A stretch of 64,000 bases of DNA from Minisyncoccota bacterium (GCA_041674225.1 JBAYWG010000001.1:102501-166500); one strand, 5' to 3'. Positions 23,530-64,000 are shown, numbered from the stretch's first letter. The notes: generated by a model not told the origin, from the sequence alone. A program made the numbers and translations.

Positions 23530-23846
23530 TTAGTCATATCCGTAAGCCGAATTCTGTTTTATGTGATCATTTATCTAGGCCGCGCCTTACGGCGCGACTC
23601 AAGCGACTCTCTGATATAAAATCAGCACGGTCTTGCATTCAAGTAAGGATTTTGCCGTTTCACTTTTGCATTTCTGCAAAACTCATCCCGAAGGATGCCA
23701 CTTTCTTTCGTCTGTGGCGTCTCTGCTCGCACCTCTTGGATCACTCCAGACGGGCGTTACCCGCTACCCTTTTTCACAGCTTTACTATGAGAATGTTCGG
23801 ACTTTCCACACTCTTGCGAGCGCGATCACTCAATATGACTTTCGGT
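23530..23846 (-). ncRNA. rnpB: RNase P RNA, bacterial type A, reduced size (~317 nt)
   Basis: The minus strand reads …AGUCAUAUUGAGUGAUCGCGCUCGCAAGAGUGUGGAAAGUCCGAACAUUCUCAUAG…GGGUAGCGGGUAACGCCCGUC… GGCCUAGAUAAAUGAUCACAUAAAACAGAAUUCGGCUUACGGAUAUGACU. This matches the universal P4 strands (GGAAAGUCCG / ACAGAA..CGGCUUA), the CAUAG and GGUAACGCC segments and the CCUAGAU.AAUGA…ACAGAA 3' region of E. coli M1 RNA. P1 pairs AGUCAUAU with AUAUGACU. Confidence 0.85.
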
Positions 23847-49082: not shown

Positions 49083-50075
49083 CTACTTTGTCAAAATAAA
49101 ATCCTCCTTCACTCCAATCAAATCAAGAACATTTTTCTTATCCTCCCCTACAGAAACCGAAACCTCAGCTCTCTCAATATCCACCGGAATCAAAGTGAAA
49201 TTTTGGGTTTTTGAGTTTAGCTCGAGACTCACTGCTAACCCGCGTCGAGTGTTGTATGAAAAATCTTGGTCGAAGACGAAGTTGCCGAGTGAATAAAAAA
49301 TTGCTTTGTCTTTATAAAACTCCAAAGGTTGCACGACGTGCGGATGCGCACCAATAATCAAATCCGCTCCAGCATCGATAAATTGATGCGCCAAAATTAT
49401 TTGTCTTTCATTTTGCACAGTCTCATATTCTTCTCCCCAGTGCGGTAAAACTACAATATAAAAACAAGTTGAACGAATATTTTTTATTTCCTCCAAAACT
49501 GATTCTGGGTTTCTCGTATATAAATCATGATAACCGATCAAGCAAATATTTTTTCCGCGAACATTCTCTACAACCGAAATCTGAGAATTATTCAACGGCG
49601 ATCCAAAATATTTTAAATCGTTTGCGTCTAAATATTTTTTGGTTTGCAAAAATCCTTCATGCTCAAAATCTAATGCGTGATTATTTGCCAAACTGAGATG
49701 TGTAAAATTATTTTGTTTTAAATATTCGGCAATTTTAGGATTGAAAGTAAATTTAAGAATTTGATTATTTGGAACTGAAACGGATGGAAAGTCGGTTATC
49801 GTTCCTTCTAAATTGCCTACGACCATATTTTTGTTTTGAAAAAGGTGCGCGACACCTCCCAAAATTGAATCAATTCCAAAATTTTGAATATGATTTGCGG
49901 TACCTCGATCAAACATCATATCTCCCACAAACAAAATTGAAATATTACCTTCAACCTTTTTTGCGGGAGTTTTTTCCAAAAATGCTAATGCAGGAATAAA
50001 ATCAATCTTTCTATATGAAAGTAAAAAAATTCCTAGCATCAAAATAATGACCAGAAATATTTTTAATAGTTTCAT
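49083..50075 (-). CDS. CapA/PgsA-family metallophosphatase-like protein (PGA_cap)
   Basis: GDMMFDRG, GNLEG, ANNHALD, …GAHPHVVQ…GNFVFDQ. Confidence 0.75.
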   Translation of the reverse strand: MKLLKIFLVIILMLGIFLLSYRKIDFIPALAFLEKTPAKKVEGNISILFVGDMMFDRGTANHIQNFGIDSILGGVAHLFQNKNMVVGNLEGTITDFPSVSVPNNQILKFTFNPKIAEYLKQNNFTHLSLANNHALDFEHEGFLQTKKYLDANDLKYFGSPLNNSQISVVENVRGKNICLIGYHDLYTRNPESVLEEIKNIRSTCFYIVVLPHWGEEYETVQNERQIILAHQFIDAGADLIIGAHPHVVQPLEFYKDKAIFYSLGNFVFDQDFSYNTRRGLAVSLELNSKTQNFTLIPVDIERAEVSVSVGEDKKNVLDLIGVKEDFILTK

Positions 50076-50495
50076 TTATTTGAAAGTTAACAAAATTGCA
50101 CCCGCAACAATCAACAAAGCTCCAATTGCAGTCTTTATAGTAAAAGCTTCTCCCAAAAACAAAGCTGCTAAAATAACTACAAAAACAACACTCAATCTAT
50201 CAATTCCTGAAACAGCTGCGGCTGGACCATTTTGTAATGCAAAAAAATAAAAAAGCCAAGACAGTGCACCTGCTATTCCTGAAGCCACAATAAAACCAAA
50301 CATCTTTCCATCTATTGTTTTTAATAATGGAGCTTTGTTTAAAAGTAATGCAGTTGAAACCAGAAACACAGCCATCACCACACCACGTACAGCAGTAGCT
50401 AAAGTTGAATCAACATTTTTTAAACCAATCTTGGCCAAGATCGCCACAGCGGATGCAAATATTGCAGATAGTAATGCGTAAATAATCCAAGTCAT
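50076..50495 (-). CDS. Small DMT/EamA-like 4-TM transporter (start MTWIIY…; the track used an upstream TTG)
   Basis: Four TM helices of the EamA pattern. Confidence 0.55.
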   Translation of the reverse strand: MTWIIYALLSAIFASAVAILAKIGLKNVDSTLATAVRGVVMAVFLVSTALLLNKAPLLKTIDGKMFGFIVASGIAGALSWLFYFFALQNGPAAAVSGIDRLSVVFVVILAALFLGEAFTIKTAIGALLIVAGAILLTFK

Positions 50496-50643
50496 ATTAA
50501 AATTCTCCACTACCTCTATCAATCATCACATCTTCTACTTGAAATTCTTCAGGTTGATTGAATATATTGTTCAACACAAAACCTAAAATAGCCAAAAATA
50601 TTATTGAAATAATTATCTTCTTTTTGCTCATCCTGAGATTATA

Positions 50644-50901
50644 TCACTTAAGGAAACCTTCTTTCAACAAAATCTTCTTTTTATTAGCAAGACCTCTATT
50701 ATATCCACCGAGCTGACCGTTACTTTTTATCACACGATGACAGGGAATTAGCGGATCATAATTTTTGTTCAAAATATTTCCCACAGAACGAAAAGCTTTT
50801 TCACTTCCCGCCTTTTTAGCAACTTCTTTATAAGAAAGCGTCTTTCCTTCTGGAATCCTCTTCACCACCTCAAATACTTTTTCGGCAAAAGTTTTAGTCA
50901 T
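50644..50901 (-). CDS. MGMT-family DNA-binding domain protein (O6-alkylguanine-DNA alkyltransferase C-domain-like, PCHRV). Start MTKTF…
   Basis: …VGNILNKNYDPLIPCHRVIKSNG…GY.. matches the MGMT C-terminal active-site motif. The ATG lies 2 nt upstream of the preceding gene's stop. Confidence 0.7.
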   Translation of the reverse strand: MTKTFAEKVFEVVKRIPEGKTLSYKEVAKKAGSEKAFRSVGNILNKNYDPLIPCHRVIKSNGQLGGYNRGLANKKKILLKEGFLK

Positions 50902-52039
50902 GATGGTGCCCGTGACTGTGTCCATGACCGCTGACTTTCAAATTTTTATATTTATCAACAAAATAAACTGCCAAAAATGTAGTGATAGGAACAGTCAGAA
51001 TCAGTCCAATACTTCCCACCAATGTTCGGGCGATTTCCGTAGCAAAAATTTCATTATTAATTATTCTTCCAAAATCAGATTTTGATTGAGAGAACCAAAG
51101 CAGGAGTGGCAGAGAAACTCCAGCGTATGCGAGCACTAGAGTATTCACTAATGCACTTATGTGCTCATTACCCACTCGCAAAGCTTTTTGATAAAGCTCT
51201 ATCGGCTTCAAATGATCAGCGGCTCTTTTTAATTCTGCAACCACAGCGACTTGAGTTGTTGCAATATCATCGAGCACCCCAAGCACACCGATAATAATTC
51301 CTCCCAAAAGCAATCCTTCGAAATCTAGAGAACCTTGTGTACTAAAATTTAGATAAACAGTTTCATCAGAAAAGAATCCACTCAGATTTAAAATCTTCAC
51401 CGAAAACCAAGCCAGAACTCCAGTGATACAGACAGCTATCACTGTGCCCGAAAATGCGATAAGCGATCGATAATTAAATCCATGCGTAAAAAAAATCGCA
51501 ATTGCTAGAATCACCGAGCCAAGCAAAATACTTGTAATGATTGGATTGTATCCTTGAATCAAAAGTGGTAACAAAACATAAATAATAATCAGAAAACTTC
51601 CAATCAAACTAATTAATGAACGCAAACCTTGCCATCTGCCGAAATACAAAACAATTCCAGCAAATAATGCTGTTAAGAAAAACAAAGTTGCACGACGATC
51701 AATATCACGCACAGAATAAATCTCATCACCTTGAATTGTAATCAAATAATTCATATAAAATTTCTGACCTTCCTCCAATAAAATGAAATCGTTTTCTATT
51801 TCGATTTTTTCTCCAGCTCTTTCTCCTTCGAGAATTTCAACTTTTAAAGTTTGATATTTTGTCTTTGTCTCAGTTCCTGGAATTATTTTTTCACCCTCAG
51901 AAACAACTTCTGTAACTTCAGCGCGCCAAACACCTTGCAAATCTTCGTAAATCTCTTGGGCATTCAAAAAAAACGGAGAGAACAAAACTAAGCCGAACAG
52001 TATGAATTTAATTTGATTTTTTACCATAGCCAACCACAA
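50894..52039 (-). CDS. YibE/F-family membrane protein with a His-rich C-terminus
   Basis: Polytopic, with the YibE/F-like segment …GVLDDIATTQVAVV.EL…. Tail HGHSHGHHHD. Confidence 0.6.
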   Translation of the reverse strand: MWLAMVKNQIKFILFGLVLFSPFFLNAQEIYEDLQGVWRAEVTEVVSEGEKIIPGTETKTKYQTLKVEILEGERAGEKIEIENDFILLEEGQKFYMNYLITIQGDEIYSVRDIDRRATLFFLTALFAGIVLYFGRWQGLRSLISLIGSFLIIIYVLLPLLIQGYNPIITSILLGSVILAIAIFFTHGFNYRSLIAFSGTVIAVCITGVLAWFSVKILNLSGFFSDETVYLNFSTQGSLDFEGLLLGGIIIGVLGVLDDIATTQVAVVAELKRAADHLKPIELYQKALRVGNEHISALVNTLVLAYAGVSLPLLLWFSQSKSDFGRIINNEIFATEIARTLVGSIGLILTVPITTFLAVYFVDKYKNLKVSGHGHSHGHHHD

Positions 52040-52424
52040 CAGATGTTGCCAATGCCACGATAATAATATTTTTAATGATGTATTGTCCAGGTAGAGTTGG
52101 AGTCAGTAATCCTTGCCATGCGATATCTGGAAGCATTATTAAAGGTAAAAATGTTGTACACATGTGGGGAATTAAAATCGCGATTGCAATCTTTTCTGTT
52201 TTTTTAAATAGAAACAAAATTCCAATTAACATTTCCACAGCTCCCAAGAAACCAAAAAATGAACTCATCGGCCACCATGGAATTGTTATCGCTCGCAAAG
52301 CATCTACTAAATCATACGCAGGAGATGTTCCGATTAGTTTTAATAATCCGAACCAAAAGAAAACTACGAAGATTGATACGTGCGCTAATAAATATGTAAA
52401 TTTTTTAATTTTTGCTGATTTCAT
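52008..52424 (-). CDS. DoxX-family membrane protein
   Basis: FFWFGLLKL (F..G..KL) motif. 4 TM. Confidence 0.5.
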   Translation of the reverse strand: MKSAKIKKFTYLLAHVSIFVVFFWFGLLKLIGTSPAYDLVDALRAITIPWWPMSSFFGFLGAVEMLIGILFLFKKTEKIAIAILIPHMCTTFLPLIMLPDIAWQGLLTPTLPGQYIIKNIIIVALATSVVVGYGKKSN

Positions 52425-52426
52425 TT

Positions 52427-52867
52427 TTATATATTACTACACTTTCCGCATGTTCCAAAAAATTCTAGTGCGTGATCTGAAACTTTTTTAAATTTTGTAG
52501 AATTCTTTTGAATTTTTTTAATAAAGTTTTCTGGCAAACAAATTTCAACTTCTTCTAAATCCCCGCAACCTTTGCAAATAATATGATGATGGTGATGGTC
52601 TTGAAATTCAAAATAAGCTTTCCCGGAACGAAAATCCGTTTGATACACAATGTCTTTTAAAACAAATTGATTTAAAATTCGGTAAATTGTCACTTGGTCG
52701 GCTTTTTTTAATTTTTTAAAAATATCTTCAACGGACAGAGGCTTTGAATTTGAAATTAAAAGTTCCAAAACAGATAAACGGTTTTTGGTTATTTTCAAAT
52801 CAGCGTCTTTTAAAATTTGACGAATATTCTTTACGATTTTTTGGGCTCTTTCTTGCTTTTTTATCAT
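52427..52867 (-). CDS. Fur-family metalloregulator (probably Zur, given the divergent ZIP transporter)
   Basis: wHTH (VTIYRILNQF), HHHHHIICKGCG…C…C metal sites. Confidence 0.85.
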   Translation of the reverse strand: MIKKQERAQKIVKNIRQILKDADLKITKNRLSVLELLISNSKPLSVEDIFKKLKKADQVTIYRILNQFVLKDIVYQTDFRSGKAYFEFQDHHHHHIICKGCGDLEEVEICLPENFIKKIQKNSTKFKKVSDHALEFFGTCGKCSNI

Positions 52868-52885
52868 GTTTCGTATTATACTCTA

Positions 52886-52904
52886 AATGCAAATAAATTG
52901 CATT
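52886..52904. promoter_or_regulatory. Palindrome AATGCAA-ATAAA-TTGCATT in the zur/ZIP divergent intergenic region. Candidate Fur/Zur operator.
   Basis: Perfect 7-5-7 inverted repeat. Position between a Fur-family gene and a zinc transporter. Confidence 0.4.
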
Positions 52905-52919
52905 AACTAAATTTTAATT

Positions 52920-53681
52920 ATGACAACAATACCATTATTATATTCTTTAATCAGCGTTTTAATTATAAGCCTTATTTCCCTAATAGGAATTTTTAGCCTT
53001 TCTGTAAAAGAAAGTACAATCAGAAAATATGTGTTTGTATTTGTCAGCCTTGCTCTCGGTGCCCTACTAGGTGATGCTTTCATTCACTTGATACCAGAAG
53101 CAATCGAAGAGACTGGTGATTTGAACAAAGTCTCACTGTTTGTAATAATCGGAATTTTTATATTTTTTATATTAGAAAAGTTTTTGCACTGGCATCATCA
53201 TCAAACTGATTCTGAAAAACACATCAAACCAGTTGGAAAAATGATTTTGATTTCAGATGGTTTTCATAATTTTATAGACGGCGTAATAATCGGAGCGAGT
53301 TATTTGATTAGTGTGGAAGTTGGTATCGCTACAACGATCGCAGTATTGCTTCACGAAATTCCACAAGAAATTGGCGACTACGGAGTTTTGATTCATGCAG
53401 GATACACAAAATCACGTGCCTTGTTTTTAAACTTTGTATCAGCATTAATCTCGATAGTTGGAGTAATATCTGTATTCTTGATCGGAGATACTCTTGAAGG
53501 AATTTTAGTTTGGTTCCTACCGATTGCTGCTGGAGGATTCATTTATATTGCTCTATCGGATTTGATTCCAGAGCTTCATGATCACGCTGAAGATAAAAAA
53601 GATATTTGGAGCACTCTGATTCAAATTTTTGTAGCGATTGCTGGTGTAGGTCTAATGTATGGACTTTTGTTTTTGGAATAA
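52920..53681 (+). CDS. ZIP-family zinc transporter (ZupT-like)
   Basis: HEIPQEIGDYGVL and H-rich loop. 8 TM. Confidence 0.85.
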   Translation: MTTIPLLYSLISVLIISLISLIGIFSLSVKESTIRKYVFVFVSLALGALLGDAFIHLIPEAIEETGDLNKVSLFVIIGIFIFFILEKFLHWHHHQTDSEKHIKPVGKMILISDGFHNFIDGVIIGASYLISVEVGIATTIAVLLHEIPQEIGDYGVLIHAGYTKSRALFLNFVSALISIVGVISVFLIGDTLEGILVWFLPIAAGGFIYIALSDLIPELHDHAEDKKDIWSTLIQIFVAIAGVGLMYGLLFLE

Positions 53682-54053
53682 ATAAAAAAAACAAGGGGCA
53701 GGCGGCCCCTTGTTTCGCTTGATCAAGAAAATCTTGATCTCACGTGACAAGCAAATCTCTTCCCTGACGGGATAAATCTTGCTCAGAAATCCTGGCACTG
53801 TTTGTTTTCTGGGTTCATCATCATCGTAAATGTCAGAAAGAACGAGACGATCGATATTAAAACTCTCTTTGAAACGCAGTAGCATTTCTAAAGGATCAGT
53901 TCTTTCTCTATCGTCCACTACGATAATCAATCGTTTTCCTTCAGGATTTTCGTTGAGAGTAAGGCCCTCAAGTTCCTGTAAAATTGTTTCTGTTAAAGTT
54001 CGTGTTGAGATCGCCCCCAACACACAAAAGTGCAGCGGGTGTCTGTATCTCAT
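53652..54053 (-). CDS. Hypothetical protein 'B' (133 aa as an ORF; the C-terminal ~25 aa are translated from a terminator hairpin and are doubtful)
   Basis: ORF preceded on the minus strand by a TTGACA-17-TATTAA promoter. No family recognised. Confidence 0.4.
   Translation of the reverse strand: MRYRHPLHFCVLGAISTRTLTETILQELEGLTLNENPEGKRLIIVVDDRERTDPLEMLLRFKESFNIDRLVLSDIYDDDEPRKQTVPGFLSKIYPVREEICLSREIKIFLIKRNKGPPAPCFFYLFQKQKSIH
53692..53716. terminator. Hairpin CAAGGGGC-AGGCG-GCCCCTTG with an A-run upstream and TTT downstream (bidirectional). It lies inside the C-terminal part of ORF 53652..54053.
   Basis: Perfect 8-bp GC stem. Confidence 0.6.
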
Positions 54054-54068
54054 TTTTTCTAACGAATA

Positions 54069-54097
54069 TTAATACATTAATTGTACTAGTTTGTCAA
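54069..54097 (-). promoter_or_regulatory. Sigma70-like promoter (TTGACA at 54097-54092, TATTAA at 54074-54069 on the minus strand) driving ORF B. It lies inside the reading frame of ORF A.
   Basis: Perfect -35, 17-nt spacer, 4/6 -10. Confidence 0.4.
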
Positions 54098-54521
54098 ATA
54101 CAATACAGGAGTCCTGGTTAAAAGAAAAAAGGTGCCCGGTGCTCACCTCCTCAAATGAGCCACCGGACACCACAAAATACAAGTATGCATGAAAAGAAAA
54201 ACAACATCCGCGCAAATAAAGGGGGGGACCTTTATTACGATCATCATCATGAATCGAATGCGAAATATTATCACTTTTCATTGCCTTCTCAGCGATAAGG
54301 CCGAGATACAAACTAAACAAAGGAACACTGTCGTAAGATTCAATCTCTTGAACTGGGTAATCTTGTCGAACAAACGACTCTGCAGCTTTTGCTAACAAGT
54401 GATCTACACTGGTTTCATTTGCTGGGTAAAAGACGATATAAACTTGATTACTCTTTTCAAAGGATTGAACGAATACTGGAATACAAGATCCCAGCAAAGC
54501 TAGAATATTTGTACTTCTCAT
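54069..54521 (-). CDS. Hypothetical protein 'A'. The ORF runs through a C7 homopolymer, a terminator and a promoter, so the true C-terminus is uncertain (possible frameshift or pseudogene).
   Basis: The N-terminal ~95 aa are protein-like. Downstream sequence has regulatory-RNA features. Confidence 0.35.
   Translation of the reverse strand: MRSTNILALLGSCIPVFVQSFEKSNQVYIVFYPANETSVDHLLAKAAESFVRQDYPVQEIESYDSVPLFSLYLGLIAEKAMKSDNISHSIHDDDRNKGPPLYLRGCCFSFHAYLYFVVSGGSFEEVSTGHLFSFNQDSCIVFDKLVQLMY
54131..54171 (-). terminator. Minus-strand terminator GGTGTCCGGTG-(19 nt loop containing GGAGGUGA)-CACCGGGCACC + UUUUUU, inside ORF A
   Basis: 11-bp GC-rich stem plus T-run in an AT-rich genome. Confidence 0.55.
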
Positions 54522-54560
54522 TTATGAAGATAATACTATTAGTCTAAAAAAATGCAACTA

Positions 54561-56042
54561 CTACTTTTTCTTATCCAAATCCAAAACTTCATCAATGCGA
54601 ATTTGTTCTACGAATTCTGGAACATGGGAAACTAAAATCATTGCACCCTCATAATCATTCAAAGCTTTCGCAATCACAGGAATGTGTCGGAAATTAATAT
54701 GGTTTGTCGGCTCGTCTAAAATCAAAAGTCCTGGTTGCAATAAAACTAATCTTGCAAAAGCCACTAAACCTTTCTGCCCTTCCGAAAGTAAACCGATTCT
54801 TGTTTTAATAATTTCTCCATAAATTAAAAATCCAGCCGCAATAGAACGAATATCTTCTTCTGTTTTTTCACCAGCAACATTCATCAAACAATCAAAAACA
54901 GTTTGTTCAAAATCCAAGTTTGAAAAATCTTGTCGATAGTATCCGATCTTTACACCATCAGAAATTTCTTCACCAGTAGCATGACCCGAAGCCAATGATT
55001 CAAGTAGAGTAGTTTTTCCAATTCCATTCGGACCAACGATTTGTAAATGTTGTCTTCTTTTCAAAACTAAATTCGATGGAACATCTTTTGGTTTGTGATT
55101 TCGAATCACTTTATAAGAAGTAAGTTTCAAAACTTCAGTTGGTAAATCTTCTTGTACAGGAATAATAAAAGGACGAATTGTTTTATCTTCTTTTCGCACA
55201 TCTACTTTATTTTCTTCAGCTTCTTCAGCTTTTTCACGCATTTTTTTCGCAACCAATCTCATTTGACCTCCTTTGTTCGCAAAAAAGTTTGCTTTGTCTT
55301 TGTTTGCCTGAATCTCTTTTTCAAGTTGAGCATTTTTTCTTTTCTCTTTCAAAACTCTCACTGCGATTTCTTCCACCACGTCGTGATAGTTTCCGGTGTA
55401 TTGTTCAATATTTTTTGTTTGAACATTTAAATAAAGAACACCGTCGGTAAATGCATTCAAAAAATCAGCATCATGGGAAATAACAATCACAGTTTTTCTA
55501 TACTCTTTCAAAAATTCTGTTAGATGTTCAATTCCCTCTTTGTCCAAATTGTTTGTCGGCTCATCTAGCAAAAGAACATCTGGATTTTGAATTAAAGCAG
55601 AAGCTAAAAGTAATCGCGCTTGTTGCCCGCCAGAAAAACTTCCAATGACTCTTTCTTTGAAAGTTTTCGCTACATCTTCATCTTTTGGTGATAAATTTAC
55701 AACTTCTAAAACATCATCAATTTTTGGATCAATTGCATAAATTTTTTCATTGAAACATTTTTCAAAAAATTCACGCACAGTCAAAGTCAGTTCATCTCGT
55801 GGAATAACTTGTCTTGAAACCGCAATACTTGTGCGAGGCATTGTAGTGATTTGTCCTTCGTCGGCTTTGTATTGGCCAGTGATCAAGCCAAACAGCGTAC
55901 TTTTTCCTGCACCGTTTTGACCCATCAAAGTTAGTTTTGCTCCACGACGAATAGAAAAACTCGTCTCGATAAGAATCGGTTTATTTGCTCCATGTTCATA
56001 AGAAACATTATTAAATGTAATCAGTCCTGCGTTCTTCGACAT
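54561..56042 (-). CDS. ABC-F family ATPase (tandem ABC domains, no TMD), compact
   Basis: Walker A GQNGAGKST and GPNGIGKTT. Signatures LSGGQQ and LSEGQK. Linker with a charged coiled region. Confidence 0.85.
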   Translation of the reverse strand: MSKNAGLITFNNVSYEHGANKPILIETSFSIRRGAKLTLMGQNGAGKSTLFGLITGQYKADEGQITTMPRTSIAVSRQVIPRDELTLTVREFFEKCFNEKIYAIDPKIDDVLEVVNLSPKDEDVAKTFKERVIGSFSGGQQARLLLASALIQNPDVLLLDEPTNNLDKEGIEHLTEFLKEYRKTVIVISHDADFLNAFTDGVLYLNVQTKNIEQYTGNYHDVVEEIAVRVLKEKRKNAQLEKEIQANKDKANFFANKGGQMRLVAKKMREKAEEAEENKVDVRKEDKTIRPFIIPVQEDLPTEVLKLTSYKVIRNHKPKDVPSNLVLKRRQHLQIVGPNGIGKTTLLESLASGHATGEEISDGVKIGYYRQDFSNLDFEQTVFDCLMNVAGEKTEEDIRSIAAGFLIYGEIIKTRIGLLSEGQKGLVAFARLVLLQPGLLILDEPTNHINFRHIPVIAKALNDYEGAMILVSHVPEFVEQIRIDEVLDLDKKK

Positions 56043-56081
56043 AAGGCTTTACATCTTACACTATTTTTCGTGTAATTGCAC

Positions 56082-57107
56082 TTACTTCTTAAAAGAAAAA
56101 TAAATATCAATTAGAGCTAGGAATACACTCACAGAAAGAGGTCCTAGCAAAAAACCTAATGGACCAAAGAAAGCTAGTCCTCCCAAAACTGAAATGAATA
56201 CAAGAAGTGGATGAAGTTTCATTCCTCTTCCAACCAATCGTGGACTCAAAAAATTATCAATCAAACCAACAGCGATAATTCCCCACGCTAAAAGTCCGAA
56301 TCCCGCAAAAGAACTTTCTGTTACAAATAAAAATATAATTGCAGGAGCTATAACTAAAGCAGTTCCAACTCCAGGAATCAAAGCAGCGAGAGCAGCAACA
56401 GTTCCCCACAAAACAGCATTCGGCACTCCAAAAATCATAAACCCAATTCCTGTTAGTGTTCCTTGGATCAATCCTATTGAAAGACTTCCCTTCACCGTTG
56501 CAGATACAGCGAGCTTCAAACGATCAACAATTTTCTCATCATCATTATCATCAAGTGGACTCAATCGCACAAAATAATCTTTCAATTTACTTCCGTCTTT
56601 CAAAAAGAAATAGAATGCTGTTAGAAATACAAAAATATTTAATAGGCTTTTTGTAACGCTAGAAAAAATTGTTCCGAAATTTTGAATCACAACTTCCAAA
56701 CCACTCTGTGCATATTTTTTAAAATCTAATTGAAAGTTTTCAGGGATCGGTAAAAATGTTTTTGCTTTATTTAAAAGTGCATCTGTGGATTCAACAAAAA
56801 AATCTGTATCTCCTGCAATCACTCCTGTATAAAGCTGAGTTGATTCTTTGAAAATTTGAAATCCAATAAAAGATATTGGCAACAAAATTATAATGACTGC
56901 AAGAATAGTGGTTATAAGTGCAGAAATTTTTACCGAATTTTTTAGATAAGATAAAATCCTTTTATAAACAGGTTGAAATAAAAATGCAAATACAGCAGCT
57001 ACAATCAAAGATCCAATAAAAGGACTGATTATAAGGTAAACCAAAGCAAAAGTGGCTACAATACAAACTAGCAGAAAATATATCGAGTGGTGTTTTATTG
57101 TGTCCAT
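56082..57107 (-). CDS. AI-2E family (PerM/UPF0118) transporter
   Basis: 8-TM topology and the family's conserved central loop. Confidence 0.7.
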   Translation of the reverse strand: MDTIKHHSIYFLLVCIVATFALVYLIISPFIGSLIVAAVFAFLFQPVYKRILSYLKNSVKISALITTILAVIIILLPISFIGFQIFKESTQLYTGVIAGDTDFFVESTDALLNKAKTFLPIPENFQLDFKKYAQSGLEVVIQNFGTIFSSVTKSLLNIFVFLTAFYFFLKDGSKLKDYFVRLSPLDDNDDEKIVDRLKLAVSATVKGSLSIGLIQGTLTGIGFMIFGVPNAVLWGTVAALAALIPGVGTALVIAPAIIFLFVTESSFAGFGLLAWGIIAVGLIDNFLSPRLVGRGMKLHPLLVFISVLGGLAFFGPLGFLLGPLSVSVFLALIDIYFSFKK

Positions 57108-57125
57108 ATCACTATAATACTTTTT

Positions 57126-57371
57126 TTATTTACTATTTTCAATCAATTCTAATTTCTTCGCTCTGGGTAACTTTTTTATTTCTGCTTCTCTCTTTGAGGC
57201 AGAGCTTCTATCTTTGTGTTCTTCTAAATACAAAAAACTCACAGGTTTGTGAGCTTTTGTATAACGGCTCCCTATACCGTCTTTATGTTCTTTAAATCTT
57301 CTAACCACATCGGTAGTTATACCTGTATAAAGACTTCCATCTTCACATTCTAGAATATATACCGAATACAT
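57126..57371 (-). CDS. GIY-YIG domain protein (YhbQ/UPF0213-like)
   Basis: YSVYILECEDGSLYTGITTDVVRRFKEH. Confidence 0.75.
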   Translation of the reverse strand: MYSVYILECEDGSLYTGITTDVVRRFKEHKDGIGSRYTKAHKPVSFLYLEEHKDRSSASKREAEIKKLPRAKKLELIENSK

Positions 57372-57374
57372 TAG

Positions 57375-57833
57375 TTAATCTTTTTTGAATTTCAATACAC
57401 TGGCGTTTTCAAGATACACCATTGTTAAACTATCCTTTGTAACTTCTGAGATAACAAAGTTTGTAGAAAGTTCTTTATCGTTTAGAGTGACAAAGATTGC
57501 TCCATCTCCAACTGGATAATTGAAGTTTGTAGGTCGGTCTTCTTTATCAAAAGTATTCCAAGTTCCTGAGACAGATACTTCCGGACCTTTTTCGTTTTTA
57601 TAAGTATCTGTGAAAGTTCCATCTGTATTAAATGTTCTTTTGAAATTTTCATCATCCACATTTACCCATGTTCCAACCAAAAGTGTAGGATCAAAACTAA
57701 GTTTTTGCTCTACCATTTCATCAGCTTTTTTATCTACACCTACAATAGACCATACATATACTATTCCGATAATAATTAGTATTCCAAGCACTATTTGCAC
57801 AACTCGTTTGTTGTTTTCGTTCATTTTTGTCAA
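57375..57833 (-). CDS. Hypothetical anchored protein (152 aa)
   Basis: N-terminal TM. ORF only. Confidence 0.45.
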   Translation of the reverse strand: MTKMNENNKRVVQIVLGILIIIGIVYVWSIVGVDKKADEMVEQKLSFDPTLLVGTWVNVDDENFKRTFNTDGTFTDTYKNEKGPEVSVSGTWNTFDKEDRPTNFNYPVGDGAIFVTLNDKELSTNFVISEVTKDSLTMVYLENASVLKFKKD

Positions 57834-57839
57834 TTAATA

Positions 57840-60530
57840 CTAATATTTATAAGCCCATTTAAGTATACCAAATTTATGGACAACCTTTCTTATTTCTTCT
57901 ACAAAAACAACAGAGAGCGCAACTGGTATCATCATCAACCATTCATCCAAAGTGAGTGGGACTGTTTTTAAAATTGATTGCATGAATGGATTATAGACCG
58001 CAAGTATTTGCAAAAGAATCACGATAATCGTTGCTCCAATTAAATAAAGATTTGAAAAAGGATTCAGTGCAAAAATCGATTTTGTTTCAGAACGACAATT
58101 CCACGCGTTGAACCATTGGAACATCGCAAGAGTTGTCAGAGATATTGTCCAAGCTTTTTCAATATTGTTTTCAAAATATTGTCCAAAGAAATAAAGTGTA
58201 CCAATCATCATCGGTATAGACATAACAATTATTCTTGTCATCATCAAACGATCAACCAAATTCTTTTTATATTTTTTAAATCTTCCAGAAAGCAAATCTT
58301 TTCTTTTTGGCTCCATAGAAAGTGCAACATCCAAAAATCCATCAGTCACTAAATTTAACCAAATAATCTGCGCAGCTAAAATAGGCAGTGGATAATCTAA
58401 AACAAAAAGTGCAACTATAATTGTGAGCATTTCTCCTGCACCTGTAGAAAAAAGATACAGAATCACTCTTTTAATTGTTTTATAAATACTTCTTCCCTCC
58501 TCAATTGCAGAAATAATACTTCCAAAATTATCGTCCATCAAAACAATATCTGAAGCCTCTTTTGCAACCTCTGTACCAATTTTTCCCATCGCCACTCCTA
58601 AATCAGCAGTCACAAGAGACGGCGCATCATTTACCCCATCGCCTGTCATCGCAATAATATCACCCTTCAACTTATAAGCTTCAATAATTTTTGATTTATC
58701 TTCTGGTGTGATTCTAGTGAAGACAGACGTTTTTTCTAAACGTGCCAACATTTCTTCTTGTGACATCGATGCTAATTCGTGACCAGAAATAATGTCATCA
58801 CCATCAGAAAAAATTCCGGCTTCTTTTGCAATAGCTTGAGCTGTGATTTTATGATCACCTGTAATCATCACAACCTTTATTCCCGCTTGCTTTGCGCGTT
58901 TCATAGATTCAAAAACTTCTGGACGAATTGTGTCTTTCATTCCGATGAATCCAACAAAAGTAAGACTATGCACCGAACCAGCATTCAAAACATTCGGGCC
59001 GTGATCTTTTGTAGCCACAGCGAGCACCCTCAAACCTTCTTCGGACATTTTGACAAACACTTTATGTAGATCATCTCGATACTCTTCATTTAGAGAAACA
59101 TTTCTTCCGTCTCTTTTTAAAGTAGTGCACATATCCAAAATAACTTCCGGCGCTCCCGTGACCGACAGAATATTATTTTCTTCAACTTTATTTAAAAGAG
59201 CGTGATACTTTAATTTAAAATCAAAAGGAATTTCAGAAATCAAAGGAATTTCTTTTAATAAATCATCGCGATTGAAACCAACTTTTTCTCCAAAAACCAA
59301 CATTGCAGCTTCTGTCGGGTCACCAGAAATTTTCCAGGTCTTTTGCTCTTCATTAAAAGAAATTCTTGCACCAGAAGAAAGTGTAAGTATTTTTGCGATT
59401 GATAAAATTTCAGGATGATTCAATGCGCTGATTATTTGATTATCTATAGAAATATCTCCTTTTGATTCGTATCCTTCGCCGGTAATTTCAAAAAGTTTTT
59501 TGTCTGTCCAAATTTTTGAGAGAATTAATTCGTTTTTTGTGATTGTGCCAGTTTTGTCTACCGCTATCACAGTGGCTTGTCCGAGCGCTTCTACGGCTTG
59601 AAGTTTTTTTACCAAAACATTTTTCTTGGACATTCTCCATACTCCTGTAGCCAAAACTAAAGTAATCACAATCGGCAACCCTTCAGGAATAACAGACACA
59701 GAAAGTGAAACCACGATTTTAAAAATCTCTTTCACAGCAAAGCCTTTTAGAATTCCAAAAATAAAAATTAAGGCACTCACCACACCCACAATCAAAATAA
59801 TCGAGTTCGAAAGTTTTTTAACATCTTTCTTCAAAGGAATATCAGTATCAATCGAAGAAATCTGTTTTGCTATTTTTCCAATCACAGTGTTTATACCTGT
59901 ATCTACCACAACCGCTTTTCCATTTCCTCCTACAATATGTGTGCCCTTGAAAACCATATTTTTTTGAGAATGCACAGGCAAATCTTTTCTATTTATATCT
60001 TCTTCATTTTTATAAACTGGCACAGATTCGCCAGTCATCGCAGCTTCATCAATTTTCAATCCATGCGAAATTATTATTCTAGCGTCGGCAGGAATTTTTT
60101 CTCCTTCTTGCAAAATAATTAAATCTCCTGGCACGAGCTCCTTATCTGAAATAATTATTTCTTTTCCATCTCGCAAAACAGTCGCTGTGGTTTCTGAAAA
60201 TTTCTTTAGAGCAAGTAAAGTGTTTTGTGCTCGACCTTCTTGAATCGTTCCTATGATCGAATTAAAAATTAAAACTCCTAAAATAATCAGGCCGTCTCCT
60301 AAATCCCCTAGAGAAATCACCACTAATGACGAAATAAAAAGAATATATATCAGCGGACTTTTAAATTGTGATACAAAAATTTTAAAAATTGAATCAGGTT
60401 TTTCTTCAGGTAAAGAGTTTGGACCATATTCTTTAAATCTTCTAGAAATTTCGTCACCAAAAAGACCGTGCTGATTTGTTTTTAGCTTTTCAAAAATATT
60501 CTCTGCAGAATTTGAATACCAATTGCTCAT
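57840..60530 (-). CDS. P-type cation-transporting ATPase (P2-type, Ca2+/Mg2+-ATPase-like)
   Basis: PEGLP, DKTGTIT phosphorylation site, TGDGVNDAPSL hinge, 10 TM. Confidence 0.9.
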   Translation of the reverse strand: MSNWYSNSAENIFEKLKTNQHGLFGDEISRRFKEYGPNSLPEEKPDSIFKIFVSQFKSPLIYILFISSLVVISLGDLGDGLIILGVLIFNSIIGTIQEGRAQNTLLALKKFSETTATVLRDGKEIIISDKELVPGDLIILQEGEKIPADARIIISHGLKIDEAAMTGESVPVYKNEEDINRKDLPVHSQKNMVFKGTHIVGGNGKAVVVDTGINTVIGKIAKQISSIDTDIPLKKDVKKLSNSIILIVGVVSALIFIFGILKGFAVKEIFKIVVSLSVSVIPEGLPIVITLVLATGVWRMSKKNVLVKKLQAVEALGQATVIAVDKTGTITKNELILSKIWTDKKLFEITGEGYESKGDISIDNQIISALNHPEILSIAKILTLSSGARISFNEEQKTWKISGDPTEAAMLVFGEKVGFNRDDLLKEIPLISEIPFDFKLKYHALLNKVEENNILSVTGAPEVILDMCTTLKRDGRNVSLNEEYRDDLHKVFVKMSEEGLRVLAVATKDHGPNVLNAGSVHSLTFVGFIGMKDTIRPEVFESMKRAKQAGIKVVMITGDHKITAQAIAKEAGIFSDGDDIISGHELASMSQEEMLARLEKTSVFTRITPEDKSKIIEAYKLKGDIIAMTGDGVNDAPSLVTADLGVAMGKIGTEVAKEASDIVLMDDNFGSIISAIEEGRSIYKTIKRVILYLFSTGAGEMLTIIVALFVLDYPLPILAAQIIWLNLVTDGFLDVALSMEPKRKDLLSGRFKKYKKNLVDRLMMTRIIVMSIPMMIGTLYFFGQYFENNIEKAWTISLTTLAMFQWFNAWNCRSETKSIFALNPFSNLYLIGATIIVILLQILAVYNPFMQSILKTVPLTLDEWLMMIPVALSVVFVEEIRKVVHKFGILKWAYKY

Positions 60531-60569
60531 TATTTTTAATACTACTATAAAGTTAGGAAAAATCTGTGT

Positions 60570-61775
60570 TTATAAAAAATCACCATAAGTATTTTTCACA
60601 TCTTGTGAATTTGCTGGATTATATTTTGGAAGATTTCTGTATTCTTCGATACCGTAATTTACAGCCTGAGCCTGTATTGCTTCTATATATTTATAGTAAT
60701 CCGCAGGTTGACCATCTATCAACAAATTTGGATTTGCAGCATTAAAACTGTCTACAGCTTTATCAATATCATTTGAATCCCCCAAATTATTCAAATGTTT
60801 TTTAACATCCCCTTCGTATTCAGGTCTACCAGAATACCTTTTTAGTGCTCTTTGCAGAGGATCCAAACCTTCAAATCTTTTATCTTTTGCCAAACTTTCA
60901 CTAGACATAAAAGAAGCAATCATTCTTCCCGCAGCATCAATATTTAAAAGGACATTCAATCTATCGTCTGCTTCCACCAGAGTCTTGCGATCATCTTTCT
61001 TTTCTATCATCAATTCCTCTAAACGTGCAGCATGATTTTGCAATTTACCACCTTCTTTACAACCTCTCACATCATTACAAATAAGAGTATGGCAATCTTC
61101 AAAAGTTTCTAGGGCAAATTCTTGAGCTACAACACCTTGCATATGACAAAGTCCAAATCCTCCGTCTTTAGCAGAGTTTGGCAACAGATCAATTCCTGTA
61201 CTTTCTTGCATAATCATCCCCAACAAAATTCCGCGAGGTATGTTGTATCTATCTTCAACGACCTCTGTAACATTCCTCCACAATAAAGTCATCGCGACTT
61301 TTCCATCAACACTTGAAGCCCCTCCTCTTGTGCTACCTCCAGGAATATTAAAGTTTTCAATTTTGGGAGGAGGAACAATTTCTTGATATCGCAATTCTGG
61401 TTTTATTCTTCTAAGTTCAGCAGAACTGATTTCTAATCTTTTTTCTTCTTTTTCTGTTTGTGGAGAACTTTCAACTTGCTCTAGTGCCTGTTCTTGCACT
61501 TTTTCTAATTTTTGTTCGTCAATGCTATCAAGTAAATTATCTATTCTCTTTTCTATATCATCTAATCTGCCAGATGCATCAGCAATTCCATTTTCTTTGT
61601 TATTTTTCAAATAAATACCTCCAAGACTAACACTGGATATAAAAGCTCCAGCTGCCCTCTCCAATAAATCTCTCCTAGAAATTGCTTTTTTATATTCTTT
61701 CTCTGCATCAGACACCTTGTCGGTCTCTTTTTTATTAAATCCCTCATAATTACTAGCTAGTTTCTCGAAATTCAC
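60570..61775 (-). CDS. Secreted protein with a lytic-transglycosylase (SLT/lysozyme-like) motif
   Basis: …MIMQESTGIDLLPNSAKDGGFGLCHMQG resembles the SLT catalytic E-S…GLMQ segment. N-terminal SRRDLL…AGAFISSV Tat-like or signal-anchor region. GC-elevated. Confidence 0.5.
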   Translation of the reverse strand: MNFEKLASNYEGFNKKETDKVSDAEKEYKKAISRRDLLERAAGAFISSVSLGGIYLKNNKENGIADASGRLDDIEKRIDNLLDSIDEQKLEKVQEQALEQVESSPQTEKEEKRLEISSAELRRIKPELRYQEIVPPPKIENFNIPGGSTRGGASSVDGKVAMTLLWRNVTEVVEDRYNIPRGILLGMIMQESTGIDLLPNSAKDGGFGLCHMQGVVAQEFALETFEDCHTLICNDVRGCKEGGKLQNHAARLEELMIEKKDDRKTLVEADDRLNVLLNIDAAGRMIASFMSSESLAKDKRFEGLDPLQRALKRYSGRPEYEGDVKKHLNNLGDSNDIDKAVDSFNAANPNLLIDGQPADYYKYIEAIQAQAVNYGIEEYRNLPKYNPANSQDVKNTYGDFL

Positions 61776-61888
61776 ATGTAAATTATAACAGATTTGATAT
61801 TTTGTTTATAAATTTTTTCACTAAATACCTCTGTATTGACATATTGTTAAATATGTTATATTTTCACTAAGAACCCTTCTTTAAAAAC

Positions 61889-63550
61889 ATGAAAAATCAA
61901 AGCACTCTTCCGGAAAAGCAGGAGTCTTTGACTCCTGCAAAAAGAACAAATCCAGCAGAAGAATTGTTTTTGCTGGACAAAACATCACCTTGGGATGAGA
62001 GAATCCTCTCGGACACAAATATTCAAAAAAGTGCATCCATCAGGCAACAGCTTGTTACTGCGCTCGAAAGAATTTACAGCCAAGTTCCCTTGCTAATGAA
62101 TATTGATCAGGCCATCAAAAATGGTTTTGTCAGCACATCGGATGCAGAGAATTTGTATCGCCTATTAAGTTTATTTCTTCAAGAGGAACACTGCAGTGAG
62201 AGATTCATTCTATATTTTCCCATGGAACTTATTCCACTAAATTTATTTAGTGAGTTCCGAGAAATCTATAAGCAAAAATGGTATCAACTGCTTTCGCACG
62301 AAGATTACAGAGCGAATTTCGTCGATGGAGATATCTCTGAAGAAGAAATTCAATCTGGAAAAATTCCAGAGGTTATCAAAGCAACTCATCTGATACCAAT
62401 ACTAATTCAAAAAGAAATTATTTCTTTAGCAGAAGTTTTGGAAATCAGAGGAGGAAGCGTTGGACTACTGAGAGATAACATTGACGAAGTCTTGAGAGCA
62501 ATTAATGGAAAGGAATTATCTAAACAAAGGAAGATTTCTTCTCAACAAATTTCCACTGCAAGAAAATCATGGGAGAAAAAAAGAGATACTCAAGAAAGGC
62601 TTCTGAAAAGTGCGAATAAAGTGGCGGAACTTCTAATTGCAAAAAGAATAACAATCGAAGAGGTAGTCAAAAAGAAAAATTACCACCTCGCAATTACGTC
62701 TGTCAGCATAGCTATTCAAAGACTTGCTCAAAATACCAGATCGAAAGCTTGTGCTCAGAGACTCTATTCAGTAATTAATCCAATCATGACTACCACGTGG
62801 TCTAGTGAGGACGATTTTACCAAAGAAATCATTGAAAGCGCGTGGTCACACATGTTGCATGTGGGGATCGGAGATCAGAAAGCAATTCAGTCTATCGGAG
62901 CACTAACAGATCGTCATGAAATTAAAACTTTCGAGGTGATTGTTGAAACAATCCGATTTGACGAAGAGTTGAAAGATTGGCTTATGCCGATCGTCATCTC
63001 TTACGGTTCTCGTGGAAAAGATTTTGGAACCATAAGTTCTGACTTCGATTTTGGAATCTTTGTTAAACCGAATGTTCCAATGATGCTCCGCTCTCAAATT
63101 CAAAAGCGTCTCAAGAAACTACTTGAGCCATTGGGTGTAAAGGGTAATGCACTTGAGTTTTGGTTGGAAGAAAATGATGATGGTCTTTTAATACAAGACT
63201 TCACAAACGCCGACAAAAAACTCGGTACGAGTAATTTTGTATCTACACTTTTCAATGGAGTGTGGATAGGTGAATTTGAAACCATTCAATTGATATATTC
63301 ACAGGTTTTGCAAAAATACCTGAAGTTGTCTGAAGATTCTGTACAACAATTTGTGGAACTTGAACGCTCAGTCTTGCAATACAGACTGATGCACAAAAAC
63401 TACCACTACTTTTATCCAAAGAGAGAAACTGAAGACTTGCCTAGAAACACAATAGACAAAAAAGGTGCCTTTTGGGACCCTGGATATCGTCGTATGGCTT
63501 CTGTTTTATTTTTGAGAAAAGTGTTTTTGCCTGAAATCGGCGAAAAATAA
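61889..63550 (+). CDS. Large hypothetical protein (553 aa) with a C-terminal minimal nucleotidyltransferase (Pol-beta/MNT-like) motif
   Basis: YGSRGKDFGTISSDFDFGIFV fits GS-x(9-13)-D-x-D of the NTase fold. An acidic LEENDDG follows ~50 aa later. No match recognised for the N-terminal ~370 aa. Confidence 0.5.
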   Translation: MKNQSTLPEKQESLTPAKRTNPAEELFLLDKTSPWDERILSDTNIQKSASIRQQLVTALERIYSQVPLLMNIDQAIKNGFVSTSDAENLYRLLSLFLQEEHCSERFILYFPMELIPLNLFSEFREIYKQKWYQLLSHEDYRANFVDGDISEEEIQSGKIPEVIKATHLIPILIQKEIISLAEVLEIRGGSVGLLRDNIDEVLRAINGKELSKQRKISSQQISTARKSWEKKRDTQERLLKSANKVAELLIAKRITIEEVVKKKNYHLAITSVSIAIQRLAQNTRSKACAQRLYSVINPIMTTTWSSEDDFTKEIIESAWSHMLHVGIGDQKAIQSIGALTDRHEIKTFEVIVETIRFDEELKDWLMPIVISYGSRGKDFGTISSDFDFGIFVKPNVPMMLRSQIQKRLKKLLEPLGVKGNALEFWLEENDDGLLIQDFTNADKKLGTSNFVSTLFNGVWIGEFETIQLIYSQVLQKYLKLSEDSVQQFVELERSVLQYRLMHKNYHYFYPKRETEDLPRNTIDKKGAFWDPGYRRMASVLFLRKVFLPEIGEK

Positions 63551-63557
63551 AAAAATA

Positions 63558-63594
63558 ACCCCGACCTCTCTTTCGAGAGGATCGGGGTTTTTTA
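63558..63594. terminator. Bidirectional terminator CCCCGACCTCTC-TTTC-GAGAGG(A)TCGGGG flanked by an A-run and a T-run, between convergent genes
   Basis: Long GC stem (one bulge) with AAAAAA upstream and TTTTTT downstream. Confidence 0.7.
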
Positions 63595-63599
63595 CTGCA

Positions 63600-64000
63600 T
63601 CATAGACGCTTTCTTCCAATACCAGCTCGGCCGGCGTCGTTGGAAAGTTTATCCCACGGAATCATTGCACCAAGTTGGTACATAGCCATAAGATAAGAGA
63701 TCTCCTCACTCCCAGACGGAAGATTGGGGAGCTCCATGATCGCAAGAGTGAACCGTGTCAAGTTCCTCTCAAGACGAACATAGTCGCTATTCACATCTGC
63801 TCCAAGCATCTTCAACATTTGCTCACGACTGGTGGCACCTATCGAAGCAGGCAAAGAGGGATTCTCAAGAATTCCCTTGACCCTGGTTGCGTCGTAAGCG
63901 AGAGCTCGAGCGATAGGAACACCCACACCTGAGAATACCTTGTTGATTTGATCGATGACAGACTCAGCGGCATCACGGACACCGGAAGTTTCCGGAGGAG
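63600..64000 (-). CDS. Partial gene (3' part; frame open to the window edge) encoding an unrecognised protein, strikingly GC-rich (~half GC by eye)
   Basis: The open frame continues beyond 63926 to nt 64000. The track's 'M' at 63926 is a GTG. Confidence 0.5.
   Translation of the reverse strand, partial: PPETSGVRDAAESVIDQINKVFSGVGVPIARALAYDATRVKGILENPSLPASIGATSREQMLKMLGADVNSDYVRLERNLTRFTLAIMELPNLPSGSEEISYLMAMYQLGAMIPWDKLSNDAGRAGIGRKRL

Follow-up and report, generated by a model that had tools for sequence, protein, structure and literature searches.

We analysed a 64,000-nucleotide (nt) stretch of the genome of a Minisyncoccota bacterium (GCA_041674225.1 JBAYWG010000001.1:102501-166500; hereafter the window), with a focus on its terminal interval, positions 60570 to 64000. 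This interval contains a gene for a 401-amino-acid (aa) lysozyme-like protein, a divergently transcribed gene for a 553-aa nucleotidyltransferase (NTase; NT553, or N), a terminator and the end of a convergent, GC-rich gene encoding the protein A459. An earlier model-generated reading of the sequence alone (hereafter the original prediction) had described the whole interval as one horizontally acquired island. Our analysis indicates that the interval is probably the junction of two unrelated units rather than a single island, with NT553 and A459 belonging to a compact multi-gene cassette that lies mostly outside the window. The features of the interval, which include the divergent ORFs, the terminator and the convergent gene as originally described, are as follows.

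60570..61775, minus strand: 401-aa protein (WC087_00875), an open reading frame (ORF) with a TAT-like (twin-arginine-like) signal/anchor, a low-complexity linker and an SLT/goose-lysozyme-like (GH23-type) domain
61776..61888, no strand: divergent intergenic spacer of 113 bp, the synteny breakpoint between a conserved block and the cassette, with a promoter-like site
61889..63550, plus strand: NT553 (WC087_00880), with a ~360-aa helical N-terminal region and a C-terminal Pol-beta/MNT-type NTase domain
63559..63592, no strand: bidirectional intrinsic terminator, CCCCGAcCTCTC-tttc-GAGAGgaTCGGGG, with an A-run upstream and a T-run downstream, common to the convergent NT553 and A459 genes
63600..64000, minus strand: last 133 codons and stop codon of A459 (WC087_00885), convergent and truncated by the window end, with the remainder beyond the window

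The terminator has a folding energy of −25.1 kcal/mol (z = −6.3), and 0 of 200 shuffled sequences were equally stable.

The compositional anomaly begins at 63600

We compared composition with a background of 67 genes upstream of 60 kb (long, non-overlapping ORFs), which have a GC content of 0.350 ± 0.033 and a GC content at third codon positions (GC3) of 0.261 ± 0.055. The mean GC content of the window is 0.35, and individual kilobases up to 63 kb range from 0.286 to 0.385. The rise that the original prediction had placed at about 60570 is not present: the kilobases at 60–61, 61–62 and 62–63 kb (0.332, 0.348 and 0.378, respectively) fall inside this range, and only the final kilobase (0.429) is an outlier. 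Both the 401-aa gene (GC 0.354, z = +0.1; GC3 0.221, z = −0.7) and the NT553 gene (GC 0.378, z = +0.8; GC3 0.343, z = +1.5) are within normal variation. The last partial gene, described as strikingly GC-rich, is indeed so, with a GC content of 0.485–0.52 in 200-nt windows over 63600–63999 and, counted from its likely start, a GC of 0.502 (z = +4.6) and a GC3 of 0.485 (z = +4.1). The compositional anomaly is genuine, with its onset at 63600 rather than at 60570.

An overlapping sequence, L001 (window position = L001 position + 51888), adds 9.5 kb to the window, and NT553 was matched exactly on ENA and Logan contigs. The GC-elevated stretch from 63600 extends ~4.9 kb past the window end (L001 11700–16600); GC is 0.40–0.50 over L001 11500–16500, against 0.35 in the flanks, and returns to ~0.36 further out. 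A structural RNA as the source of the GC-rich end was rejected: the stretch is an ORF running on into the source contig, and no RNA gene was found at 63300–64000 by Rfam, at gathering and E-value thresholds, or by ARAGORN.

Composition of the cassette

Extending the contig, as had been suggested, identified the truncated GC-rich gene: A459 closes a minus-strand operon of four genes, in the order K, V, P and A459, to which NT553 is convergent. The three genes beyond the window, in window-equivalent coordinates, are as follows.

64976-66370, minus strand: P, PurA-like, 512 aa as called and ~464 aa from its probable start at a conserved MKxKK (MKNKKVF)
66453-67595, minus strand, contig extension: V, MIDAS (metal-ion-dependent adhesion site)-motif protein, 380 aa
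67632-68456, minus strand, contig extension: K, kinase-like, 274 aa

A459 is annotated with 459 aa from a GTG codon. It is likely to comprise ~403 aa from Met57 (M57), because the residues upstream are unmatched and modelled with low confidence, whereas Met57 is invariant in 60 homologues; the annotated start (L001 12924–13091, window-equivalent 64812–64979) is thus probably 56 codons too far upstream. More than 347 homologues with 46–67% identity were detected. A search of 1.84 billion representatives yielded 347 clusters at E ≤ 1e-3 (245 at ≤ 1e-30), all of ~400 aa and without fusions, and identity across phyla is 44–56%. A459 belongs to no Pfam, NCBIfam, PADLOC or PHROG family, and its profile has no match among PDB sequences. 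The AlphaFold2 (AF2) model is all-helical, with a predicted local distance difference test (pLDDT) score of 83 and 278 residues at or above 90. A Foldseek search with this model returned nothing above noise in the PDB (best E = 0.29, template modelling (TM) score < 0.2) and nothing among the BFVD viral models. Adenylosuccinate lyase, the fumarase fold, ARH, HD, MazG, HEPN, Ro60–TROVE and pore-forming toxins were considered as candidates and rejected, none rising above noise in the Foldseek PDB search. The model and the Foldseek matches revealed no repeats, coiled coils or known filament fold, and the family lacks the conserved His/Ser/metal triad typical of lyases. A459, the centrepiece of the cassette, is a highly conserved orphan with a predicted all-α fold.

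P matches PF00709 from end to end (E = 2e-34), although its scores lie well under the equivalog cut-offs (88 bits versus 402 for NF002223 purA, 81 versus 396 for TIGR00184 and 14 versus 300 for the PurZ model NF038379). Residue roles are those of the E. coli enzyme AdSS. The P family (n = 36) keeps GDGGKG (the P-loop Asp and Lys), the catalytic His (GSHG), GAGP, the guanine-specificity Asp (TW(F/L)DQ) and SFGP (SxGP), with GDGGKG, GSHG, TW(F/L)DQ and SFGP invariant or almost so, and the equivalents of E. coli PurA H41 and D333 are retained. By contrast, Q224 is replaced by the nearly invariant H297, GTTGRG has become GTVGxG (T129 and R131 changed), and the aspartate-binding GATTGRRRR loop (T300-T301-G-R303-R-R305) is replaced by ENRWQG-KVR. 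P has lost the contacts to IMP O6 and to aspartate while retaining the GTP and phosphoryl-transfer residues. We infer that P is a GTP-dependent ligase with substrates other than IMP and aspartate. P resembles PurA in its full-length PF00709 match and in its GTP-site and phosphotransfer residues, but its operon neighbours are kinase-fold and MIDAS-motif proteins, with no purine genes. Unlike PurZ of the 2-aminoadenine pathway, it has no DatZ, MazZ or DpoZ neighbours at the L001 cassette.

The K profile matches CK2-alpha (E = 2e-6), the aligned region taking in the N-lobe, the catalytic loop and the Mg loop. The PHROG 'kinase' family is matched at E = 1e-8; of the individual members, 7/37 match Pkinase and 3/37 match APH. 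The catalytic sites are variable (n = 37), with Gln, Lys or Arg at the β3 position (17, 12 and 7 members, respectively), a variable or gapped HRD Asp, the loop Asn in 30/37 and a DFG-like Asp in 28/37. From these residues, K appears to be an atypical kinase or a pseudokinase. In V, the DxTxS motif (D80, T82 and S84), D125, D128, E138, E161 and D192 are invariant, and DxTxS and D192 are shared across the three locus types described below. None of the 37 V members matches Pfam, and two PDB profile searches returned no match.

NT553, which completes the type I cassette as its fifth gene, in convergent orientation, carries the C-terminal NTase motif that had been recognized in it. The single sequence scores below threshold against Pfam Polbeta (E = 0.047; PF18765 14.3 bits, cut-off 26.9) and NCBIfam MntA (E = 0.006; 16.5 versus 60 bits). 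In the family (41 homologues, several with a precomputed PF18765 match), G373, S374, K377 and D385-x-D387 are invariant and E423 is nearly so, and the family profile matches HI0073 (E = 0.004) and MntA with the motif residues aligned. The AF2 model has a pLDDT of 86 and a predicted TM score (pTM) of 0.87; a Foldseek search gave only weak local matches, of the C-terminal domain to MntA, CdnC and minimal NTases, and no match for the 360-aa helical N-terminal part. NT553 thus shares with the MNT/MntA–HI0073 proteins, its best sequence and fold matches, the hG[GS]...DxD motif and a third acidic residue. However, it is ~4 times larger: a conserved helical region of 360 aa precedes the NTase domain and a helical extension follows it at the C-terminus, neither of them with a recognized fold. 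The pair formed with its convergent partner also differs from the type VII MNT–HEPN pair, as A459 lacks Rx4-6H and matches no HEPN family in Pfam, NCBIfam or PADLOC.

No secretion signals were found in the cassette sequences read, and searches for riboswitch or other RNA leads gave no Rfam match in L001 9800–17000 or in 16 other loci.

Linkage and variant architectures

Scanning one genome per species with the A459 profile yielded 80 loci, and linkage was counted by tblastn of six L001 proteins in 86 non-self loci. Matches were found for A459 in 83 of these, P in 64, NT553 in 59, K in 52 and V in 51, with many of the missing matches being contig ends. The same order and orientation as at L001 ('K> V> P> A> N<'; type I) occurs in ~50 of the 80 genome loci, mostly in Patescibacteria. 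These include L006 and L007/L008, where NTase homologues are convergent to the A459 operon in unrelated surroundings; one cassette locus from these look-ups adjoins a restriction-modification pair. Flanking genes are unrelated except among close relatives, such as five Nanosyncoccaceae/Saccharibacteria loci. The other architectures are as follows.

Type II: A459, kinase, 480-496-aa protein and P, in this order; in Melainabacteria (including a 7-Mb Obscuribacter contig), Chthonomonadaceae, Bdellovibrionales and some Patescibacteria
Type III: adds a second kinase-fold/V-like pair, a 698-aa Ser/Thr kinase, a 352-aa 'LIDNSGS' protein and NAD/ADP-ribose enzymes; in three Falkowbacteria and a gammaproteobacterial metagenome-assembled genome (MAG)
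L089 (IMGVR_UViG_3300027896_005002, 416 kb, GC 0.31, virus-labelled), 2118-11158: LIDNSGS protein, Ser/Thr kinase and A459, in this order
L090, the second IMG/VR contig: type I cassette, but with N in the orientation of the other genes; both IMG/VR contigs are ~410 kb and putatively viral

The 480–496-aa protein of type II is a V homologue (for the 496-aa protein, hhalign probability 95%, E = 3.5e-8), and type II keeps the cyclic order K-V-P-A of type I; one locus encodes a V–P fusion of 956 aa. Type III encodes a CN_hydrolase–NAD_synthase–NMNAT (NadE–NMNAT) fusion, a PRK/NRK-like kinase, an ADP-ribosylglycohydrolase (E = 9e-46) and an NMNAT-like protein (L020:5015-7477, L020:12569-13207, L029:12790-13851, L029:13881-14504 and L036, in the same order). 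At L089, the kinase has 561 aa (PF00069, E = 7e-24), the LIDNSGS protein is 52% identical to that of type III, and no P gene lies within 10 kb of A459. A eukaryote-style WGR–PARP_reg–PARP protein is encoded 6.4 kb from the A459–kinase–MIDAS trio; genes for an R2K ATP-grasp protein, saccharopine dehydrogenase and ornithine decarboxylase are also nearby. In a hybrid locus (L021 1028–10382), K, V and P are separated from A459 and N by another kinase-fold protein, a V-like protein and a protein with weak similarity to a pyruvate-kinase barrel, in this order, which shows that the K–V unit can be duplicated inside one cassette.

Ordinary Pkinase scores were obtained for the type II, type III and L089 kinases. 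Every architecture retains an invariant core made up of A459, a kinase and a MIDAS-motif protein; P often accompanies it, and N is specific to type I, largely in Patescibacteria. The MIDAS-motif partner belongs either to the 380-aa family or to a 340–350-aa LIDNSGS family, and the two families are unrelated to each other by profile. A phage origin was considered and rejected: 50,697 phage records searched by tblastn with A459 and V gave no match, nor did the Foldseek comparison of A459 with BFVD, and IMG/VR yielded the two putatively viral contigs.

Relationship to known systems

TerY-P triads (vWA, STK and PP2C) and the vWA-containing NTP (nucleoside triphosphate)-dependent conflict systems (Kaur et al. 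2020, PMC7159879) resemble the cassette in coupling a kinase fold to a DxS/TxS protein, in their patchy distribution over phyla, in their multi-enzyme composition and in their NTP dependence. However, the cassette lacks PP2C, MoxR and STAND components, the vWA assignment of V is by motif only, and the third partner, A459, has no known relatives. PMC7159879 (Kaur et al. 2020) mentions no PurA-like component. The cassette is not CBASS either. It matches no system found (not MNT–HEPN, PurA/PurZ, TerY-P, CBASS or any in PADLOC), and no description of it was found in the literature searched, including targeted in-paper searches, the coverage of which is incomplete.

We tentatively propose, somewhat short of an even chance, that A459, a MIDAS-motif protein and a protein kinase constitute a previously unrecognized class of cytoplasmic system built around a new all-α fold, usually with a PurA-derived GTP-dependent ligase of new specificity and, in Patescibacteria, with a large NTase. 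This system would be common to episymbiotic Patescibacteria, Bdellovibrionota, Melainabacteria, Chthonomonadaceae and the 416-kb virus-labelled contig, and would be wired to NAD+/ADP-ribose metabolism (ARH, PARP, NadE–NMNAT and NRK neighbours), one example being an immunity or host-interaction module that works as a sensor and switch. The value of the locus lies in this cassette: a compact, rare and strongly conserved module whose centrepiece has no relatives in Pfam, among PDB sequences or in the Foldseek PDB and viral-model searches, coupled to a PurA-derived enzyme with a clearly changed substrate. Few PurA paralogues are known to have acquired new chemistry, the precedent being phage PurZ. 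The tiny Patescibacteria genomes that carry the cassette devote ~6.5 kb to it, and the recurring kinase, MIDAS-motif and NAD/ADP-ribose links are hypotheses testable in the now genetically tractable Saccharibacteria strains.

Proposed function of the cassette

The comparisons above establish the anatomy, linkage and conservation of the cassette and the states of its catalytic sites. As to what it does, the leading reading, although well short of an even chance, is a cytoplasmic NTP-dependent regulatory or conflict (defence-like) module. In such a module, the metal site of V would mediate its docking to A459 or to a target, and K and the GTP-using P-like ligase would set or modify the state of the A459–V complex, as a switch or modifier. 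N might nucleotidylate a component, as MntA-type NTases do, and the output or currency could be tied to NAD+/ADP-ribose metabolism, as suggested by the neighbours at type III loci and L089. A conflict role is favoured by the rarity of the cassette, its patchiness over phyla, its variable context, its modular accessory genes and the one locus beside a restriction-modification pair.

Several observations weigh against a conflict module or limit the comparisons behind it. PADLOC-DB v2 contains no known defence family that matches the cassette, the only hits being at chance level (Can1, E = 0.016; PglW, E = 0.056). A459 is 44–56% identical between phyla and apparently codon-optimized, which is unusual for defence effectors; this conservation and codon use are in keeping with a housekeeping-like or structural protein of high abundance, or with an enzyme. 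In A459 the codon shift is mixed, with C- and G-ending codons both increased and C replacing A at four-fold sites. V appears vWA/MIDAS-like by motif only, the residue mapping of P, in which the 36 cassette proteins are compared with an E. coli PurA sequence, is provisional, and some of the non-Patescibacteria hosts are short MAG contigs that are possibly mis-binned.

A pathway for the salvage or biosynthesis of a nucleotide or cofactor is an unlikely alternative that nevertheless accounts for several features. In such a pathway, K would phosphorylate a scavenged nucleoside-like precursor, P would use GTP to swap a ring oxygen for an amine other than aspartate, N (or NMNAT) would make a dinucleotide, and A459 would be a new all-α enzyme (for example, a lyase analogue) or a carrier. 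The PurA-family chemistry of P, in which the GTP site is intact and the substrate site has changed, accords with this scheme, as do the three K members that match the small-molecule kinase family APH, the NAD salvage enzymes that adjoin type III and the strong sequence conservation. The Patescibacteria hosts are, moreover, nucleotide-scavenging episymbionts. However, MIDAS-type docking and protein-kinase-fold partners would be atypical of a pathway, bona fide Ser/Thr kinases occur in type III and L089, and the catalytic residues of K are degenerate. P is absent from L089 although A459, the kinase and the MIDAS-motif protein remain, A459 lacks a lyase-typical triad, and a module found in 347 clusters is rare for a function that these organisms would commonly need.

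GC3 excess and expression signals

The GC3 comparison covered 53 loci, each with five or more flanking genes; the flanks range in GC3 from 0.25 to 0.74. A459 exceeds its flanks by a mean of +0.15 and lies above them in 89% of loci, followed by V (+0.12, 87%), K (+0.07, 87%), P (+0.03, 55%) and N (0.00, 55%). The genome studied here has the corresponding mosaic: A459 0.485, V 0.404, K 0.324, NT553 0.343 and P 0.269 (z = +0.1 for P). The GC excess is an intrinsic, recurrent property of A459 (and V) across hosts and not a sign of recent import. Thus, the GC enrichment that had been read as a signature of horizontal transfer recurs gene by gene in hosts of very different GC content. The case illustrates that a locally raised GC3 can belong to the gene family itself and need not indicate recent transfer.

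A near-consensus TTGACA-17-TATAAA promoter lies in the minus-strand spacer of 164 nt that precedes A459. GC-rich hairpins follow V (L001 14524–14551), P (~13050–13080) and A459 (11671–11704, that is, window 63559–63592); those after V and after A459 carry the same tail, TTTTACTGCA. This putative promoter of its own, together with the hairpins, is consistent with separately set expression levels. Translational selection on A459 is plausible, although the mixed codon shift leaves proof wanting. The window contains no ribosomal protein genes for calibrating codon bias, and its highest-GC3 genes are without informative domains.

These data also bear on the idea that A459 is an abundant structural or scaffold protein, such as a cytoskeletal, nucleoid or ribonucleoprotein (RNP)-like component, which V would bind via its metal site and for which K, P and N would act as assembly or regulatory modifiers. 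GC3 is raised in A459 and V but not in P or N in most hosts, A459 has its own promoter and is insulated by hairpins, and the protein is very highly conserved, uniform in length and free of fusions. In addition, the cassette is kept in tiny genomes and is inherited with local synteny in Nanosyncoccaceae. Nevertheless, we regard a scaffold as distinctly unlikely: the distribution is rare and patchy, A459 has no repeats, coiled coils or known filament fold, and its codon shift does not clearly point to translational selection.

A very recent horizontal transfer that brought in the entire block from a donor of higher GC content, without any cause specific to single genes, would account for the raised GC over L001 11500–16500, the synteny break and the patchy distribution. 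We consider it quite improbable. P, located between V and A459, has a GC3 at background level (0.269 versus 0.261), which argues against block-wise amelioration or import from a GC-rich donor, and the same gene-specific excess of A459 recurs in 89% of the 53 loci whatever the GC3 of the flanks. No mobility genes or attachment (att) sites were found: no integrase domain occurs among the called genes and no recurrent integrase across cassette loci, there is no tRNA within 21 kb, and candidate att sites or terminal repeats at the borders were rejected as chance-level 14–30-nt matches. Integrase, tRNA or att boundaries, for which a search had been suggested, are absent from the borders. Signs of a horizontal island (composition, synteny break and patchy phyla) are nonetheless observed for the cassette, with the GC component from 63600 on, and not for 60570–61775. 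The proposal of a horizontally acquired module accordingly fits the NTase and the GC-rich operon, which combine a synteny break with patchy phyla and unrelated contexts, and fails for the 60570 boundary and the 401-aa gene.

The 401-aa gene belongs to a conserved block

The family of the 401-aa protein is small, with 31 proteins detected. Its N-terminus has an SRRxFL motif (SRRDLL in the window protein), followed by a hydrophobic stretch and a variable charged linker. Across the family, E191, D204-G-G-x-G-x-x-H-M-Q213, N278-x-D-A-x-x-R284 and G316 are invariant, and S192 is invariant or nearly so. The family profile matches goose lysozyme (PDB 153l, E = 0.007) over the segment with the catalytic Glu, aligning E191-S192 with its 'RES'. 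The invariant G208-L-C-H211-M212-Q213 and the conserved R313-Y314-x-G316 are variants of the canonical SLT motifs of the GLMQ and AYNxG types. PF01464 (SLT) is matched by 10/31 members (best E = 4e-5) and TAT_signal by 8/31; the window protein itself has no Pfam match at E ≤ 1. The SLT/lysozyme-like assignment, which had been made from the catalytic segment (E191-S and DGGFGLCHMQ), is supported at the level of motifs and profiles, and the protein is predicted to be a GH23-type (SLT/goose-lysozyme) enzyme that cleaves peptidoglycan and is either exported or anchored in the membrane. It thus belongs to an already known kind, with the E-S, GL(x)xMQ and (A/R)Y(x)G motifs of SLT (PF01464)/GH23 enzymes in the correct order, but adds a Cys-rich insert between the motifs, a long C-terminal extension and a twin-arginine-like anchor.

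In two further loci (L003, from a close relative, and L004/5), the genes downstream of the 401-aa homologue are those that follow it in the window, and they encode a 148–151-aa protein (149 aa in the window), a P-type ATPase, an AI-2E transporter, ABC-F, Zip, FUR and YibE_F. A gene-by-gene tblastn comparison of L003 with the window and its extension revealed collinearity over 49092–61712, with the 401-aa gene as the last collinear gene, and 0/10 L003 genes upstream of its orthologue match the window or the next 9.5 kb. The 401-aa proteins (60570–61775 versus L003 8001–9158) are 39% identical and the small 149-aa proteins 40%, compared with 64–91% for the other collinear neighbours; the low identity of these two suggests rapid divergence of exported or surface proteins. 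The 401-aa gene is native, inherited vertically with its downstream neighbours, fast-evolving and not a member of the cassette. Normal composition and vertical synteny were found for this gene and not for the GC-rich gene, and the synteny does not extend to the pair formed with NT553.

The proposed functional pairing of the lytic enzyme with the NTase did not survive these comparisons. A GC-rich imported island from 60570, in which a secreted lytic enzyme and the divergent NTase form an attack, effector or defence pair, is barely credible: the genes do adjoin divergently, both domain guesses were right, and a synteny break and a GC-rich gene are close by, but the 401-aa gene has background GC and GC3 and is collinear in relatives without the NTase, which accompanies A459 in 59 loci and never the 401-aa family. 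That family occurs only at its own three loci and is absent from all 83 other A459 loci, and the gene neighbourhood of the pair is not conserved; its members keep the downstream block, whereas the NTase goes with A459. Nothing in the evidence supports an attack or effector role. Because the lytic enzyme gene is ordinary core equipment, an attack island of lysozyme and NTase would be a misleading reading if carried forward.

Spacer and other features of the window

The spacer at the junction has a promoter-like TTGACA-17-TATTTT at 61836–61864 (plus strand) for the NTase gene, with 10/12 consensus matches; matches of this quality are no commoner in the spacer than in shuffled sequences. An 18-nt motif, ATTTTTTCACTAAATACC, is present in three copies with 83–100% identity, two of them within the spacer (61812–61829 and 61858–61875) and one within the 5′ end of the 401-aa gene (61602–61619). 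The ATTTTTTCACTAAATACC repeats could be operator sites, or chance occurrences in AT-rich DNA.

The most GC-deviant coding gene in the window proper is a 269-aa ORF at 12451–13260 (minus strand), with a GC of 0.423, a GC3 of 0.381 and no Pfam match. The only RNA genes found in the window by Rfam and ARAGORN are those for a class A RNase P RNA (23527–23841, minus strand) and for tRNA-Glu, tRNA-Phe and tRNA-Arg, the tRNA genes lying at 10858–10930, 18074–18149 and 18864–18936. The RNase P RNA is of the bacterial class A (113.9 bits), with several helices shortened.

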